Origin: a virus
Length of the DNA: 64,000 bases
Virus genome (UHGV): UHGV-0307316
Strand: one strand, 5' to 3'
The position numbers were made by a program, and so were the translations under genes. The notes beneath the pieces are model-generated. The model was not told the origin of the DNA. It did no database searches and was given only the letters and a program-made list of their open reading frames with translations. Positions 28,831 to 35,785 of the stretch are shown here, piece after piece (the first letter of the stretch is position 1; each line of letters opens with the position of its first letter).

Positions 28831-29967
28831 TTATTCGTAGTCTCGAATAACGAGACCAACAGGGAACTGTAAAGAACCCTTACGAGTCATCTTCTGGAAC
28901 TGAACCGTTAAAGGTTTCCCGATAAACTCTTCAGGATGCTCAGCAAGATACTGTTTCTTCTCGTGTGTAGTTTTCCATGAAACATCTACAAAGACGTTAG
29001 GAAGAGTCTCTACAACGAACTTACCATGACCACGCTTATCAGTCTTTACACCAGTCACTTTAAACTCTTCAGTGTGCATCTTCTTGTGCTTAATCAAGAA
29101 GTATGAACGGTGACCACACTCATAGAAAGATTCTTCAGAGATTGAACGGTACATTGCACCTTCAAACTTAGCTTCAACCCACTTATCATGAGCTTCATCA
29201 AACTCTTCCCAAGAATTTACACGGATAGTCTGTACAGGAACAACTCTACAGGTATCCCCAAGCTCAACAATAGGTGAGTTATCAATAACTTCACGACGCT
29301 CAGGCCAAGATTTTGAATTGTCACAGATATCATACCAGTAGAATTTAAGAAGGTGACGGTCTGGATTGTCAGCATTCTTAATCATAGATACAATATCTTC
29401 TAAGTCCCAACCATGAGCATAAATCTCTCCGTCAAAGTCTTCAACTTGCGGATGTAATTTAAGCAACAAAAGCAAATCTGGGATTAGTTCTGTTGGAACG
29501 TTGTAAACAGTATTCTCACGAGAATAAGCTGTGAAACTGACTGAATCAGCATCTCTTGAGATTCTACAACGTACACCATCAAGTTTTGGTTGAGCATCAG
29601 CAGGGAACTTCAGATACTTTGCATGACTAACCTTTGCAGCATCATGAGCAAGCTGTACACCTACCTTCTCAGTATTCTGTGCAGACTCTTTTGTGTAAGC
29701 ATAACCTTTACGGTCAACTTGCTTTTTATACTTAGCAGCAACTTCAAAGAGAGCTTGCTGTTCAGCGTTACGCTCATTCTTTTTACCGATGTTCTTAGGC
29801 TCTGCTGTATACTCTTCAAACATCATCTTGCCATTCTCTTTACCATAGGTTGTAATAACTTTGTCACCTACAGCAACACATGACCAGACGTTGAAGGAAC
29901 CATCTTTATTTTGTTTGTACAGAATTGTCATTTTTAACCTCTGAGTGATACCAAGTATTGCAAGCAT
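28831..29967 (-). CDS. ATP-dependent DNA ligase
   Basis: Adenylation motif I KLDGVRC (KxDGxR) in the translation; size as for T7-type ligases. Confidence 0.8.
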   Translation of the reverse strand: MLAILGITQRLKMTILYKQNKDGSFNVWSCVAVGDKVITTYGKENGKMMFEEYTAEPKNIGKKNERNAEQQALFEVAAKYKKQVDRKGYAYTKESAQNTEKVGVQLAHDAAKVSHAKYLKFPADAQPKLDGVRCRISRDADSVSFTAYSRENTVYNVPTELIPDLLLLLKLHPQVEDFDGEIYAHGWDLEDIVSMIKNADNPDRHLLKFYWYDICDNSKSWPERREVIDNSPIVELGDTCRVVPVQTIRVNSWEEFDEAHDKWVEAKFEGAMYRSISEESFYECGHRSYFLIKHKKMHTEEFKVTGVKTDKRGHGKFVVETLPNVFVDVSWKTTHEKKQYLAEHPEEFIGKPLTVQFQKMTRKGSLQFPVGLVIRDYE

Positions 29968-30124
29968 TACATGCGTAAAGCTCTAAGTCATTTTTATCTG
30001 GTTTGTGGAAACAGTTTGACCCACAACGACACCGGAATAGCTTACCATCAACACGAAGAATGAATGTTTCAAGCTCACCATCTTCTGTAAGAACTGCGTT
30101 CTTAAATTTATCTTCTACAGTCAT
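29906..30124 (-). CDS. Zinc-finger small protein (hypothetical)
   Basis: CRCGSNC ... CNACN cysteine pairs. Confidence 0.35.
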   Translation of the reverse strand: MTVEDKFKNAVLTEDGELETFILRVDGKLFRCRCGSNCFHKPDKNDLELYACNACNTWYHSEVKNDNSVQTK

Positions 30125-30327
30125 TTTCTCTTACCACCAATCTCTACGTCGATAACTTGAACATCGCCAGCAACATCAAACTTATGAATGATGCTTTCCA
30201 CAGTGTAAGTCCAACCCTCAATGCGAACCAACTCACCTTCTCGTGGGACGATTGGATTACGTTGAGCTACGGTTGTAGTGGAGTGAACAACATCATAACA
30301 ATAGATGTAGTTTACTAAGACTTCCAT
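30121..30327 (-). CDS. Hypothetical protein (start trimmed to internal Met to avoid overlap with lipoprotein gene)
   Basis: ATG at 30325-30327 (- strand) preceded by GAGG; the longer listed ORF would overlap 30338-30607. Confidence 0.3.
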   Translation of the reverse strand: MEVLVNYIYCYDVVHSTTTVAQRNPIVPREGELVRIEGWTYTVESIIHKFDVAGDVQVIDVEIGGKRK

Positions 30328-30337
30328 CGTGAAAACC

Positions 30338-30607
30338 TCACTCAATAACCGTAGTGTGTGATTGACCATTTTTGCCATAGCTATAAGATGTTGTTGTTTG
30401 GGAGTTTGGACATCTGACAACAACAATATCTCTGCTTATAGCATCACCATGTAACTTGTATACTCTGCAATCTTGCATCTCTGGTGGGAGACTGTAAGAA
30501 GCATTTTTATCTTCATAAGAAGGGTTGCAGCCAGATAGAAAAACAACACCAAGCGCAATTACTGCTTTCCACATAATACTTCCCCAGAGACTGTACATTT
30601 TCTTCAT
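30338..30607 (-). CDS. Small lipoprotein (candidate superinfection-exclusion / receptor-masking protein)
   Basis: Signal peptide with lipobox (VVFLSGC); short mature domain with an additional Cys. Confidence 0.5.
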   Translation of the reverse strand: MKKMYSLWGSIMWKAVIALGVVFLSGCNPSYEDKNASYSLPPEMQDCRVYKLHGDAISRDIVVVRCPNSQTTTSYSYGKNGQSHTTVIE

Positions 30608-30837
30608 AGCAACTCCAGAATATCAATACGTTCACCTTTGAGTACTCCAGTACGGTCTTTTGCAATCTTACCGTCAACAATAAGAATGTGTGCAGACCTT
30701 AAAGTGTCGCTGTTAAAGGCTTTTACGAACTTGCTAGGCATCACTACAATACACATCTCCTGAATCAACTCTGGAGTATAGCAATTGTCGTGAAGTTGCT
30801 GAATAACGTCTGCAAGTGTCATTTTTGATGTCTCCAA
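30604..30837 (-). CDS. Hypothetical protein
   Basis: 77 aa ORF, translationally coupled. Confidence 0.3.
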   Translation of the reverse strand: METSKMTLADVIQQLHDNCYTPELIQEMCIVVMPSKFVKAFNSDTLRSAHILIVDGKIAKDRTGVLKGERIDILELL

Positions 30838-31028
30838 TATTCAATATCTACAAGTTCTTGTGCAATGCTTTTAAGGTTACTTTTGAGGAAAACTTTCTCA
30901 CCACCAGACAGGGAAGTGTTATCAATGAGTCTATTCATTCTCTCAAACAACTTCTGCTTACGGTTCTTGATAGTTTCCTTTGAAGCACCTTTCATCATCG
31001 CTGCATGGGTTCTTCCACGGTGACTCAT
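30819..31028 (-). CDS. Hypothetical small basic protein
   Basis: 69 aa ORF. Confidence 0.3.
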   Translation of the reverse strand: MSHRGRTHAAMMKGASKETIKNRKQKLFERMNRLIDNTSLSGGEKVFLKSNLKSIAQELVDIEYWRHQK

Positions 31029-31079
31029 AAGCCCTCCTATATAAGATATAGTATAAGGTACTCTTCCATGAGCACCTTG

Positions 31080-31595
31080 TCAACTTAGTTTTGCAAACTC
31101 TCCGTGGAGTTTTACAGCAGCTTCACAGTAAGCTTTATGGGCTTCTTCTTCCGTTGTGTATGTTCCTATATGTATAGTCTTACCATTATGGTTAATCTGG
31201 GCTACCCACTTACCAGACTTGCTTCTACTTGTGCCTTTTAAGTTTTTTGATGTTCTAGGTTGTCTCCTATTAGACATGTTCTGTTCTTTTGTGGCCTCTC
31301 TTAAATTGTTCCAAGCGTTATTCAAGCCATCTCCATCTTTGTGGTCAATGTGTTTATCAGGCCACTTGCCTGTCATCCAGAACCAAGCAATTCGGTGATT
31401 ACCTGTCCTGTATCCTAAAATCTGTGTGTGCATATACACACCAGACCTTGTGCGCTTAATTGCTCCGGCTTGGCTTCCAATAACCACCCTACTACTATGT
31501 GGAGGTCTACCAATCCATGTTAAGACCCCTGTTTCGGGGTCATAATCTAACCAAGACTTTAACTGTTCATGTGTGAATCCACAATCTCTCATCAA
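31080..31595 (-). CDS. HNH homing endonuclease with AP2-type DNA-binding domain
   Basis: HNH core IDHKDGDGLNNAWNNLREATKEQN; C-terminal AP2-like segment SKSGKWVAQINHNGKTIHIGTYTTEEEAHKAY; start abuts DNA polymerase stop. Confidence 0.7.
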   Translation of the reverse strand: MMRDCGFTHEQLKSWLDYDPETGVLTWIGRPPHSSRVVIGSQAGAIKRTRSGVYMHTQILGYRTGNHRIAWFWMTGKWPDKHIDHKDGDGLNNAWNNLREATKEQNMSNRRQPRTSKNLKGTSRSKSGKWVAQINHNGKTIHIGTYTTEEEAHKAYCEAAVKLHGEFAKLS

Positions 31596-34321
31596 TGTAC
31601 CTCATACCAGCTCTTACCAACCTTACCTGTGCCAGTTACAAGCGTCTCACTCTTCAAACCTAAATTCTTAGATGCCTGACCATACATCCAGTCAGTTATG
31701 GCTTTAACTTCTTGAGTCATACTTTCTGGGCATTCCCAACTGTTTTCATCGTGGTATGCCAGCAAAAGCCTAGCACCGATTGCTGGTTTTCGTCCATTTA
31801 ATTTTGTCAATCCTTCTTCACATGCTCTTCTACAAGCAAGATTAATTGCCTCATTTTGAATCTGAGCCTCTGAACCCATGAGCAAATAATTCAATAACTT
31901 ATGTGGAGATTTACACCACAACCAAGCTCCAGCAACCTTTACAAAACCACCTTTAGAGATTGCAGCAGTCTTACCAAATACCTCTTCAAGTGCCTTTTTA
32001 GTTGCTTTGTAGTCAGCTTCCAAGTCATCTAGCAGCTTTTTAATTTTAGGCAAACGAATAAAGTAAGTCTGTTTAGTCAGCGCACCTTCCTGAGTAGTTG
32101 CAGCTTTAATCGTCTTAGCAAACTTCTCATCACCTGCACCGAACAGCAGTGCATAGATACCATTCTTAGCTTTCTTACGACCCTTGCTAATCTCATGAAG
32201 AAGATTCTCATCCTGAGTAGCTCGACAAGTCAAGATGTCCTGCTCATCGTTCAAGTTAAAGTAAATACTGTTCAGTGTATGTGCATCAGTCCCTGAATAG
32301 ACAACGTACAGGTCATTCTCAGAGTCATAGCGAAGGTACTTATCAATCTCTGGGTTGAGGTACTCATCAAAGTGTTTACAGTAATAGCGTCCATCTTCTT
32401 GACGAATGAACTCAATTTCTTCTTTACCTTGCGTTACCGCTTTGGTGAAGTCTTTATCACCCATAAAGTTACAAAGAAGAACTAGCTGGGCTGAGTTCAT
32501 GTCTACAGAGACAACGTTAGTACCTTCCTCACAAATCCACACTGCCCTCATTGGTTCCCCATAGACAGCAGCACCAGACGGTACGTTTACAATACCATAC
32601 TGTGTCATACGTCCAGTTGAAGTACCAAACACCATTGCACCAGCACTAAGGCGACCATCAGGACGAATCTGGTTCAACCAACCTTTTTCATCATCCTTTG
32701 AGTTCTCAATAGTTCTGCGTCGGTGCATCAAAGTGTAGTATTTAGCAATCTTCTGTCCAAGCTCACCTTCAATCGTATCGTAAGATGATTCAGTAAGTTT
32801 TGGTGAAGTACGGATTAAGCAAGGCTCAAGCAAATCTGTGTACTTCTTCACAGACCAGTTATGCTCAATGTACTGGACGCCTTCGTGTTCAACATAACTC
32901 AAACCACACCGCTCAACCATTTCCTGCCACTTAGGATGCTTTGTAATCATCTTTTTATTGTCTTTGAAACGACAAACTTTGACAGGGCGACCATCAGAGT
33001 CTTTCTTGTAGTTCCAGTCATCTGGAATCCAACCAACTGATTTCAAGTAGTCTTTAACAACTGCTACCTGAGTCATACGAGAAACTTCAAACTCAATTGG
33101 TGTATATGGTGCATCAATCAAACCTGTGTAGCGACTTGACTCAAGTTCAAAGTGGTTAACAACGTGGCTGTTATAGTACTTCACAGTTTTGACTGTTTTT
33201 ACTGGCTTCCAGTCTTTGCATTTCTTACCAATCTTTGCGTTCAACTCATTGCAAATTGCACGAGCATCCTTCATTGCTACAAAGCCTTCCTTGTACTCTT
33301 CACCAGTTACAGAGTTGGTTGGTGTATAGCAATTCCTTTTTTCAATGTTAAAAATCTTTGTAGTTGGCTTACCAAATGGTTTGATTTCGTATGTCTGCAT
33401 CTCGCCATTACGTACCTGCTGACGATACTTTGTCTTAGGGTACTTGGTAATTCTTTTCAGTCCATCTGCATGACCAAATGTTTCAACATACTCATTCCAA
33501 GCTTTTGCAAACTCTTCTCCAGTGACTTTACCTTTGGTCTTAATAGTTGGAGGTAGATGTGGTTCAACCTCTGAAGCAAGCTCATTAGTCAACTTGTCAA
33601 GTTCCTTTACATGGAACTCCATAAGCTCTTTATCAGCTTTCCAACCATTGATAGCTTGTTGACTCATCCAGAAAGATGTTTCTTTAGCTCGCATGTAGGT
33701 TTCATAAGTGTCTATGCCACACTTCTTAAGCTTGAGATACTCATTATCAAGTGCCCGTTTAGTTTTGGCGTTAATACGGATATCTTCTACAACACGAGTG
33801 AAGATTTCTGCATTCCACACACCCCAATGTTCAATCTCTGGTTTACGAACACCAACACGAGCACCCCATGCAGCCAAGCCATGAGCACCTTTATAACCCT
33901 TTGGAGTTGGTCTATCCATCCACTGAACACGAGACTGGATAAGAGAATCCTGAAAGAAATTACTCCACGGCTTACACTTTGGATTATCAAAGTTCCATAA
34001 ATCCGGTGCAATGTGATTGAAAACCCACCAGTCATAACCTAGACCATTATGAATGCAAAGACGTTTTGCCTTTAACGCAAACTCAATACCTTCACGTAAG
34101 CCACCCTTAATGTACTTGGTATACTTGTGACCGAGGATAGGCTCATCTGTAAAGACCCATACAGGTGGCTCTTCATCGTCAGATTTATAGTCTGCGAAAG
34201 CCATTACGTGCACTTTAGTGAACTCAAGGAGTAAACCATCAGTTTCTGTATCACCAACTAAATGTAAGTTTTTAAAATCTACGTTTTCCATTTTTACTCC
34301 CTCTAAAATCATTAACCTCAT
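31592..34321 (-). CDS. DNA polymerase, family A (T7 gp5-like) with 3'-5' exonuclease domain
   Basis: Exo I VGDTETDGL; Pol motif A VSVDMNSAQLVLL; motif B KKAKNGIYALLFGAG; motif C AYHDE. Confidence 0.9.
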   Translation of the reverse strand: MRLMILEGVKMENVDFKNLHLVGDTETDGLLLEFTKVHVMAFADYKSDDEEPPVWVFTDEPILGHKYTKYIKGGLREGIEFALKAKRLCIHNGLGYDWWVFNHIAPDLWNFDNPKCKPWSNFFQDSLIQSRVQWMDRPTPKGYKGAHGLAAWGARVGVRKPEIEHWGVWNAEIFTRVVEDIRINAKTKRALDNEYLKLKKCGIDTYETYMRAKETSFWMSQQAINGWKADKELMEFHVKELDKLTNELASEVEPHLPPTIKTKGKVTGEEFAKAWNEYVETFGHADGLKRITKYPKTKYRQQVRNGEMQTYEIKPFGKPTTKIFNIEKRNCYTPTNSVTGEEYKEGFVAMKDARAICNELNAKIGKKCKDWKPVKTVKTVKYYNSHVVNHFELESSRYTGLIDAPYTPIEFEVSRMTQVAVVKDYLKSVGWIPDDWNYKKDSDGRPVKVCRFKDNKKMITKHPKWQEMVERCGLSYVEHEGVQYIEHNWSVKKYTDLLEPCLIRTSPKLTESSYDTIEGELGQKIAKYYTLMHRRRTIENSKDDEKGWLNQIRPDGRLSAGAMVFGTSTGRMTQYGIVNVPSGAAVYGEPMRAVWICEEGTNVVSVDMNSAQLVLLCNFMGDKDFTKAVTQGKEEIEFIRQEDGRYYCKHFDEYLNPEIDKYLRYDSENDLYVVYSGTDAHTLNSIYFNLNDEQDILTCRATQDENLLHEISKGRKKAKNGIYALLFGAGDEKFAKTIKAATTQEGALTKQTYFIRLPKIKKLLDDLEADYKATKKALEEVFGKTAAISKGGFVKVAGAWLWCKSPHKLLNYLLMGSEAQIQNEAINLACRRACEEGLTKLNGRKPAIGARLLLAYHDENSWECPESMTQEVKAITDWMYGQASKNLGLKSETLVTGTGKVGKSWYEVH

Positions 34322-34548
34322 ACATTACTGCAAAAAATTATAAAAAGCAAGTTGACAATGCACTTGACAAGGTGTTAATCTTTGCGAAGTGGGTTTTTAC
34401 TTAAAAGGTTACTTAACAGTTTAACTATACAGATACTTTAAATCTCTTAAAAGATTATTTAATAGCTTTTAAAAAGCTTTAAAGTATAACGTATAGAATA
34501 CGTTAAGATAAAAGATTAAAACTTAATAGTTACTTAAAAGAGGCTTAC
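34322..34548. promoter_or_regulatory. Divergent AT-rich control region between the - and + replication blocks
   Basis: Tandem TTGACA (34352, 34364), perfect palindrome AACGTATAGAATACGTT (~34490-34506), near-palindrome AGCTTTTAAAAAGCT, repeated CTTAAAAG. Confidence 0.5.
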
Positions 34549-34971
34549 ATGCAGAAAATGTTTGTTCACCCAGACATAGCTGACTTTGTTAGAGCTTTGC
34601 AGAAGTTGGAAGAACTTGACATTGCTGCTCAACGGGAATATGCTCACCATCACAGGAGAATGGTTGATATACAACATGAAATAGAGTTGTCTGAAAACTA
34701 TGAAGATGACTTAAAATGCTCTGTATTTGAGCATATGAAAGATGTTGCTACAGCAAGACGTAAAGCTAAAGACACAGTTGCTTTACTGGATTCTCTTAAA
34801 AAGAGGTTGCAAAGTGGTACAGACCTGTGTAATCTAGCGTCACTGATTAACGATGTTGAAACTTCTTGGGATAGGCACTATTATCCACGTTCTGAAAAGA
34901 CACTTGACTTTTCTTCATCAGAAAACTTAAAATGTTCTAGAAAGAAACTTAACCAACTGAGAGAGAAATAA
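34549..34971 (+). CDS. Hypothetical protein
   Basis: 140 aa ORF, first gene of + block 3. Confidence 0.35.
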   Translation: MQKMFVHPDIADFVRALQKLEELDIAAQREYAHHHRRMVDIQHEIELSENYEDDLKCSVFEHMKDVATARRKAKDTVALLDSLKKRLQSGTDLCNLASLINDVETSWDRHYYPRSEKTLDFSSSENLKCSRKKLNQLREK

Positions 34972-34972
34972 T

Positions 34973-35785
34973 ATGAATATCAATGTGGAACAGATGCTTG
35001 AAGAGAAAGGTGTTGATGAAGCATTCTTAATCAATGCCGTAGAAAGCATGGCTATGATTCTTCGTGGAAATAACTACACAGAACAGTTTATGCCTGCAAG
35101 CTACAACTTACCTGAAGACAAGTCTGATAGTAGTGCTTTTGCAGAGCAGGTTAATATGATGCTGTGTGACAAAACGCTTGCTTTAGCATCTATCGTTGTA
35201 GGTGTCGATGCTCTTGCAGAGTTCATTTTTTATGAGATGCAGAAAAATGACTATATTGCCATGACATCTGAAGAAAAAGACTCGCTGCTGCTCTTAGATA
35301 ATGATGAGCTAGTTGGCCTGTTAATTTCTTCAACGAGTGCTGTTATGGCTGCTCTTGAGAAGCGTATGAATGAGAAGTTGTCACGGTATGAAAAACTTGA
35401 TTGGGGCGTAGAAGAATTAAACCCACGAATCAAAGAGATTATCCAGCAAACCAAAGCTTCTTTGGAAGAAGCTGTGAAAGATGATTATGTAGCTGGCATA
35501 GAACCACTACAGGTGAAAGTTGCATTGATGATGCCAGCTATCTCTACGATGATGAATATCGTTGCATTAATCCAGCTTTCACAGATGATGGGTACAACCA
35601 TCGAGTTCATTGAGAGTATGACTGGTGGTGTCAGTATGCAAGCAATCAATGATGTTTTGGTGAGCATTGGAGCTTCAATCATTGAAGAGAAACTGCGCAT
35701 TAACTTTGGTGACGATTTTGTGAAGCAAATCGCAGCTATGGCTGAAAAAGAACACTCACAGATTACCACTGAACAACTGCACTGA
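34973..35785 (+). CDS. Hypothetical protein
   Basis: 270 aa ORF. Confidence 0.4.
   Translation: MNINVEQMLEEKGVDEAFLINAVESMAMILRGNNYTEQFMPASYNLPEDKSDSSAFAEQVNMMLCDKTLALASIVVGVDALAEFIFYEMQKNDYIAMTSEEKDSLLLLDNDELVGLLISSTSAVMAALEKRMNEKLSRYEKLDWGVEELNPRIKEIIQQTKASLEEAVKDDYVAGIEPLQVKVALMMPAISTMMNIVALIQLSQMMGTTIEFIESMTGGVSMQAINDVLVSIGASIIEEKLRINFGDDFVKQIAAMAEKEHSQITTEQLH

Follow-up and report, generated by a model that had tools for sequence, protein, structure and literature searches.

Does the small open reading frame that begins where the DNA polymerase gene ends, in the window (the whole 64,000-nt stretch of viral DNA that was analysed), encode a mobile homing endonuclease, and what is its relation to the polymerase gene that it adjoins? 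The original prediction had placed an HNH endonuclease with an AP2-type DNA-binding domain at 31080-31595 and had taken it to be a selfish homing gene, free-standing and at the same time fused to the polymerase gene. We found that the reading frame is present and that its protein matches Pfam HNH_3, Pfam AP2 and PHROG 99, as predicted. The features around the junction are listed here.

31592..34321, minus strand: family A DNA polymerase gene, 909 aa, uninterrupted (Pfam, PHROG)
31592..31613, minus strand: polymerase end variant, last ~14-22 nt, TGG TAT GAG GTA CAT TGA (...SWYEVH-stop)
31080..31592, minus strand: HNH-AP2 endonuclease gene, 170 aa from the ATG at 31592-31590 (ORF list, Pfam, PHROG 99)
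31080..31595, minus strand: the same gene from an alternative TTG start at 31595-31593, 171 aa
31082-31080, minus strand: endonuclease stop codon, TGA (read from the sequence)
31051..31083, minus strand: conserved right-junction motif TTGACAAGGTGCTCATGGAAGAGTACCTTATAC, 33 nt, overlapping the endonuclease stop codon
30819..31028, minus strand: downstream 69-aa gene, phrog_5180, the right neighbour of occupied and empty sites in most relatives

On the sense strand the junction reads ...TGG TAT GAG GTA CAT TGA TGA GAG ATT..., with the polymerase stop TGA at 31594-31592. The endonuclease start does lie on the polymerase stop, as had been predicted; however, the overlap is not the ATGA that was described. 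The strand reads TGATG (1 nt of overlap) if translation begins at the ATG, which is the start chosen in annotated relatives, or TTGA (4 nt of overlap) if it begins at the TTG. The claim that the two genes are fused does not hold: their ORFs are in different frames, the polymerase frame is closed by two stops (TGA TGA), and the same ...EVH-stop end of the polymerase is found in phages without the endonuclease. A Shine-Dalgarno-like GAGG is present at 31603-31600, within the last polymerase codons and 7 nt before the endonuclease ATG. When we scanned 30500-32000 for sigma-70 promoters and terminators, we found no signal above shuffled expectation and no promoter-like or terminator-like site between the two genes. 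From the GAGG in the polymerase end, the TGATG overlap and the lack of any such site between the genes, we infer that the endonuclease is co-transcribed and translationally coupled with the polymerase.

Two other arrangements were considered and rejected. An intron-encoded endonuclease of the I-HmuI type does not fit, because the gene follows the polymerase stop, nothing interrupts the polymerase and no intron model matches; a search of 29000-35000 for introns and other RNAs gave no Rfam match, group I and group II introns included. An intein-associated endonuclease does not fit because the reading frame differs from that of the polymerase, which is itself closed by the two stops. The endonuclease is a separate ORF outside any intron or intein, that is, free-standing, and a search of the window with all four gene types found at this site (described below) returned no paralogue.

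The domain matches of the endonuclease are far above chance. Pfam HNH_3 scores 51.7 bits (cut-off 24.8; E 6.9e-14), Pfam AP2 scores 38.4 bits (cut-off 33.3; E 1.6e-9) and PHROG 99 'HNH endonuclease' matches the protein end to end (E 8.8e-64); an NCBIfam scan of the protein returned no family. The domains and the aligned active-site positions fall as follows.

31275..31397, minus strand: HNH_3 nuclease domain (Pfam), residues 67-107 in the 171-aa TTG numbering
31101..31229, minus strand: AP2/ERF-type DNA-binding domain (Pfam AP2), residues 123-165 in the 171-aa TTG numbering
31346-31344, minus strand: catalytic/structural D83 (ATG numbering; I-HmuI alignment)
31343-31341, minus strand: catalytic/structural H84 (ATG numbering; I-HmuI alignment)
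31307-31305, minus strand: catalytic/structural N96 (ATG numbering; I-HmuI alignment)
31280-31278, minus strand: catalytic/structural N105 (ATG numbering; I-HmuI alignment)

These positions come from the alignment to I-HmuI of Bacillus phage SPO1 (PDB 1U3E), whose sequence match to the middle of the endonuclease is weak (E about 0.05) and whose HNH_3-type active site aligns at D-H, N and N: D74, H75, N87 and N96 of chain 1u3e_M (in its own count) stand opposite the identical D83, H84, N96 and N105. I-HmuI is a nickase with a helix-turn-helix domain at its C-terminus, and its gene lies in a group I intron within a DNA polymerase gene. The window gene is unlike I-HmuI in that it has no intron, follows the polymerase stop codon and encodes an AP2 domain as its C-terminal domain. 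This C-terminal part matches solved plant AP2/ERF domains (7wq5 at 1.2e-7, also 5wx9, 7et4 and 1gcc). In a single-sequence AlphaFold model (mean pLDDT 51) the HNH part is unusable, and residues ~120-165, the AP2 part, are the sole confident part, modelled as three strands and a helix with pLDDT 77-90. The protein has only two cysteines (C4 and C156) and no CX2C, and its motif is DH...NN..NLRE....QN. An N-terminal HNH domain followed by a C-terminal AP2 domain in one polypeptide, and an HNN-type motif without CX2C zinc-binding dyads, are both as in the HNH-AP2 family, and the nuclease domain is an intact HNH (beta-beta-alpha-metal) domain of the homing endonuclease class. In the relatives that carry this same gene (type A), all copies are intact ORFs with pairwise dN/dS of 0.04-0.15, indicating that the endonuclease is under purifying selection.

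To which phages does the locus belong, and is the gene always there? The 6 kb around the locus match 266 phage records, most of them 90-97% identical. Nearly all of these records belong to Felix O1-like phages whose hosts are Escherichia, Salmonella, Shigella and Citrobacter and which fall in Felixounavirus or in neighbouring Ounavirinae genera; Felixounavirus is also where the window belongs. One IMG/VR contig (L020) is 100% identical to it in every segment compared, from 1.2 kb upstream to 1.1 kb downstream of the polymerase stop. A match to some part of the gene (an HNH gene with a shared tail) is present in 156 of the 266 GenBank records; only 50 records match at least 80% of the gene, and the remaining matches cover just its last 70 or 147 nt. 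For empty sites we sampled 60 of 261 records, evenly spaced, and searched them for the empty junction. About 26 of the 60 are endonuclease-free: 12 are contiguous across the site and 14 have an unrelated small gene further downstream, the latter counted as endonuclease-free on the basis of two loci (L005 and L006). We also classified 41 loci, 10 from GenBank and 31 from IMG/VR found with the polymerase C-terminus, by the state of the site.

Type A (the gene present in the window): 8 loci, the window itself not counted
Type B (LMP25-like): 4 loci
Type C (REP5-like, one diverged C' included): 7 loci
Type D (Felix O1 ORF95): 4 loci
Empty (polymerase stop, then 5-6 nt, then TTGACAAGG...): about 18 loci

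Among ~265 related genomes the rough proportions are 40% empty, 19% type A and 40% other HNH-AP2 genes. The gene is not universally conserved, and the endonuclease-free allele to be expected of a homing gene was looked for and found, with ~40% clean empty sites. Presence and absence are polymorphic at one precise site among close relatives, as expected of a free-standing phage homing gene.

The empty site can be compared with the occupied one base by base. In KhF3 (L001, KT184315), window positions 30579-31083 and 31588-32300 adjoin with 2 nt between them; KhF3 is without 504 bp relative to the window, and the absence is clean. Phage wV8 and typing phage 12 are further examples with an empty site. 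The empty site of KhF3 reads ...GAGGTTCAC TGA TTAGTA TTGACAAGGTTCTCATGGAAGAGTACC..., and the occupied site reads ...GAGGTACAT TGA TG, followed by the endonuclease gene, ...CTAAGT TGA CAAGGTGCTCATGGAAGAGTACC... at its far end. The right-junction motif lies 5-6 nt after the polymerase stop in empty alleles and is highly conserved in all Felix-like loci, just after either the polymerase stop or the HNH stop. We rejected this motif as a canonical sigma-70 promoter: the TTGACA-TATACT spacer is 22 nt and the scan does not call a promoter there. Both Erwinia-phage outgroups (L031 and L032) also lack a gene at the site and have a TTGACA junction much like this one, so that the empty state is the ancestral one.

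The left edge of the element lies inside the polymerase gene. All nine type A copies, the window's included, end the polymerase in TGG TAY GAG GTR CAT TGA (...SWYEVH-stop), and nearly all empty alleles end it in TGG CTT GAR GTN CAC TRA (...SWLEVH-stop). The junctions at the 41 loci and the near-isogenic pairs place the start of the HNH-linked polymerase sequence 14-22 nt ahead of the stop. This re-coded end and the endonuclease ORF together form a cassette of ~500 nt, in which the re-coded end provides both the GAGG ribosome-binding site and the TGATG stop-start overlap. One endonuclease-free phage, UAB_Phi87 (L014, 3730-3760), has the polymerase end TGGTATGAGGTACAC (WYEVH), an end that elsewhere travels with type A and type C endonuclease genes; it may be a trace left when the gene was lost, or a conversion that did not bring the gene with it. 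On the other side of the site, the order and presence of the small downstream genes (30604-31028; phrog_5180 of 69 aa and phrog_4230 of 72-77 aa) differ from one relative to another. O157 typing phage 12 lacks the 210-nt downstream gene, DE17 and Sf14 have an extra gene of ~200-219 nt that separates the 210-nt gene from the polymerase, and in mistaenkt such an extra gene separates the 210-nt gene from the endonuclease gene.

Has the cassette moved between phages? We found three near-isogenic occupied/empty pairs (L034/L036, L010/L016 and L022/L025). In each, the polymerase ends are 94-98% identical until 30 nt before the stop, and beyond that point the occupied member has the re-coded end and a ~502-nt insert that ends at the TTGACA motif. 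When the last 240 nt of the polymerase gene were clustered, type A was found on at least seven polymerase 3' haplotypes, three of which also occur empty. Type A is present in at least two genera (Felixounavirus and Suspvirus) and in an unclassified contig (L033). In that contig the DNA of the endonuclease gene is 90-98% identical to the window copy, as compared to 60-75% for the polymerase flank, and the sequence downstream is unrelated (52-75% for the flanks overall). In PMBT20 and L034, likewise, the gene is 96-99% identical as compared to 73-87% for the polymerase end. A gene that is more similar than its flanks, on several polymerase backgrounds, is the signature of horizontal spread. When the window was compared with two type B phages (L011 and L007), the polymerase was 94-100% identical until about 14 nt before the stop and identity of 93-97% resumed from the endonuclease 3' tail, the cassette alone being different. 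An apparent ectopic copy in Shigella phage vB_SflM_004 was considered separately and rejected as evidence of transposition, as it consists of ten short colinear fragments. These fragments of the gene (22-124 nt; L042, MK295205.1, 386-3269) lie in a holin/thymidylate synthase region, nine being about 90-100% identical and one 73%, and the most likely explanation of the fragmented copy is a chimeric assembly of that record.

Taken together, these data suggest that the ORF is likely to be a free-standing HNH-AP2 homing endonuclease gene inserted immediately after the DNA polymerase stop codon. The view of it as a selfish element, put forward in the original prediction, is supported by the comparative evidence: empty alleles, many polymerase backgrounds, a gene closer than its flanks and an intact, selected protein. 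During co-infection with an empty-site relative, the endonuclease would bind DNA through its AP2 domain and nick or cut near the polymerase stop/intergenic junction (TGGCTTGAAGTACACTAA-TTAGTA-TTGACAAGG); on the empty allele the expected cut region is near ...TGGCTTGAAGTACACTAATTAGTATTGACAAGG.... Its own allele would be immune, the junction being split and the last polymerase codons re-coded; the steady difference in these codons between occupied and empty alleles gives an indirect hint of such cutting and immunity. Recombinational repair, with the endonuclease-carrying genome as template, would then give the recipient the cassette and sometimes part of the neighbouring polymerase sequence as well. 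Three further diverged HNH-AP2 genes occupy the same site; these would replace one another by recombination between the polymerase end and a shared 70-nt tail. We infer the binding, cutting, immunity and repair steps from known free-standing phage homing endonucleases; in the literature we found no Felixounavirus HNH-AP2 protein for which activity, a cleavage site or biased inheritance had been reported.

One observation counts against this reading. In the Suspvirus relatives (mistaenkt L009, and L022), the gene has diverged about as far as its flanks have, with dS about 1.1, which indicates long vertical residence in Suspvirus besides transfers elsewhere. Such residence under strong purifying selection is not necessarily to be expected of a purely selfish element that decays once it is fixed. 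The gene might be a domesticated accessory nuclease that arrived as a mobile element and is now kept for a benefit to the phage, possibly by excluding or degrading co-infecting relatives without copying itself, or by aiding recombination-dependent replication. The strong purifying selection noted above, the apparently vertical residence and an expression that seems tightly coupled to the polymerase would all fit such a role. We nevertheless consider it unlikely, given that about 40% of close relatives have no gene at the site, that the site holds four interchangeable diverged genes, and that recent transfers across diverged backgrounds show the gene to be still moving.

If the gene had instead been ancestral and lost repeatedly, the presence/absence pattern would come from recurrent deletion and not from insertion or homing, and the common position and 3' tail of the four gene types could mean a single old insertion. 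This is very unlikely. The Erwinia-phage outgroups lack the gene and have a junction of this kind, the empty sites are uniform and base-precise in many lineages, and loss alone cannot yield a gene that is far closer than its flanks, as it is in L033, PMBT20 and L034. Finally, an inactive nuclease kept to regulate the downstream early genes through AP2-type DNA binding would account for the AP2 domain being the best conserved part of the protein and for a gene 3' end that abuts a conserved motif upstream of the next genes, but it is highly improbable, as the D-H...N...N catalytic positions are kept in types A, B and D (type C, in REP5, has serine for the last Asn), purifying selection covers the whole ORF, and empty alleles express the same downstream genes without the endonuclease.

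A homing gene of this kind is not new to these phages. The same gene, annotated as 'homing endonuclease', is gp47 of Escherichia phage Andreotti (QHR70864.1), in the same position after the polymerase stop and with 99% protein identity, and equivalents in PMBT20, Si3, Meda, BPS17L1 and others are in the same position (protein identity 97-99%, Andreotti included). No substantive difference separates these genes from the window gene; their labels are by similarity only, and homing-endonuclease-like labels occur in dozens of related phage records. Felix O1 ORF95/gp95 (NP_944955) occupies the same site with the same HNH-AP2 architecture and has an identical last 23 aa. In contrast to the equivalents above, its protein is only 40% identical to that of the window, the two genes resemble each other in DNA only within the 70-nt tail, the overlap with the polymerase gene is 19 nt long as compared to 1 nt in the window, and its polymerase terminus is ..TWYAVH-stop. 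The Felix O1 genome has six HNH homing-endonuclease-like genes, of which ORF95 is one (PMC3185647). According to PMC5318435 and PMC10448857, HNH-AP2 is a recognised homing endonuclease family, and Felix O1 genes were in its original description (Magnani 2004).

The same arrangement is found in other phage lineages. Xanthomonas phages Xp10, OP1 and Xop411 encode HNN-AP2 endonucleases without CX2C zinc dyads (PMC2248197), and among the divergent ICP1-like AP2-associated HNH genes (IPA-HNH), 29% adjoin DNA polymerase genes (PMC10448857). Like the window gene, these proteins have an N-terminal HNH/HNN domain without CX2C and a C-terminal AP2 domain, and their genes are multi-copy, free-standing and often beside DNA polymerase genes (PMC2248197, PMC10448857). 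They differ in phage lineage, and the ICP1 versions are too diverged for Pfam HNH_3, which the window gene matches clearly. In T4-like phages, free-standing endonuclease genes (Seg and Mob; Hef and SegH replacing mobE/mobC) are intergenic, adjoin essential genes, and spread by cutting the endonuclease-free allele and co-converting flanking markers, and one site may house different endonuclease genes in different phages (compare PMC10448857). Those endonucleases belong mostly to other families (GIY-YIG, or HNH without AP2) in a different phage group, and their cleavage and homing have been demonstrated experimentally, whereas the window gene is known from sequence comparison. The element is thus already known, a routine selfish gene that is annotated in many Felix O1-like phages and belongs to a family two decades old. 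By-products of the present analysis are a base-precise definition of the cassette and its empty site, and a census of one site (roughly 40% empty, 19% type A and 40% three other genes). With the near-isogenic occupied/empty and type A/type B pairs, experiments on cleavage and homing would be straightforward.

How do four different genes come to share one site? Types A-D have 40-54% protein identity with one another and no DNA similarity across most of their length. Their last 70 nt, however, are nearly the same.

31080..31149, minus strand: shared 3' tail, 70 nt (last 23 codons), present in the four gene types and not in empty sites

We compared the tail at these window positions and at the equivalents in seven loci (L004, L007, L008, L012, L013, L021 and L030). 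The tail DNA is about 93-100% identical across types A-D and the similarity breaks off abruptly; the last 23 aa are alike except at one I/V/M position. Most simply, one endonuclease gene would take the place of another through recombination, with one crossover right where the polymerase gene ends and a second in or beyond the shared 70-nt tail, which is probably the right-hand crossover zone of such replacements. Homologous endonuclease genes have turned over at the same location in other phages (PMC10448857). The type A/type B pair L020/L011 comes from one metagenome and has flanks that are >93% identical.

A more speculative possibility, which we put forward tentatively, is that the site is contested by the four diverged HNH-AP2 cassettes, each protected by its own re-coded polymerase terminus. 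The re-coded last 4-7 polymerase codons would then serve as a ribosome-binding and start signal and also as target-site immunity against the cassette's own endonuclease, an immunity that would perhaps not extend to rival endonucleases, and gene-by-gene replacement would be resolved within the shared 70-nt tail. If this is true, co-circulating Felixounaviruses would be a natural and easily crossed system for endonuclease-versus-endonuclease competition and turnover. Two records named for unrelated hosts, Staphylococcus phage SA1 (GU169904.1) and Campylobacter phage A132 (MG065664.1), have a Felix O1-like locus with 97% identity to the 70-nt tail; these are probably contaminating or mis-assigned sequence.

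The polymerase gene next to the cassette also has a patchwork of identities. To locate the change, we compared the window with nine endonuclease-free phages (L001, L002, L005 and L014-L019).

31592..31837, minus strand: mosaic tract, ~245 nt, at the polymerase 3' end (identity comparison with endonuclease-free phages)

Identity to these relatives is 94-100% upstream of ~31837 and drops sharply to 66-80% within 31592-31837. The ~245-nt tract is common to only two type A and two type B phages. It has the look of a co-conversion tract, but this is suggestive only. We rejected a strict linkage of polymerase 3' haplotype to endonuclease type, since the haplotype clusters mix A, B, C and empty loci. 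Because haplotype and endonuclease type are only loosely linked, the mosaic tract cannot be tied to one homing event. For Felixounavirus engineering and typing (phage therapy, Salmonella diagnostics), the polymerase 3' end is flagged by this analysis as a recombination hot spot. In many relatives a second insert splits the polymerase gene about 470-560 nt before its stop. This insert is an 'endonuclease VII' gene or, depending on the phage, an HNH gene or an unannotated gap; the split polymerase is found in PMBT20 (L010, 2497-6022), Si3, FM4b, REP5 (L008, 2140-3746), garuso and Shigella phage Tf. In some phages, then, an endonuclease site lies on either side of the polymerase 3' region, whereas the window's polymerase has no such second insert.
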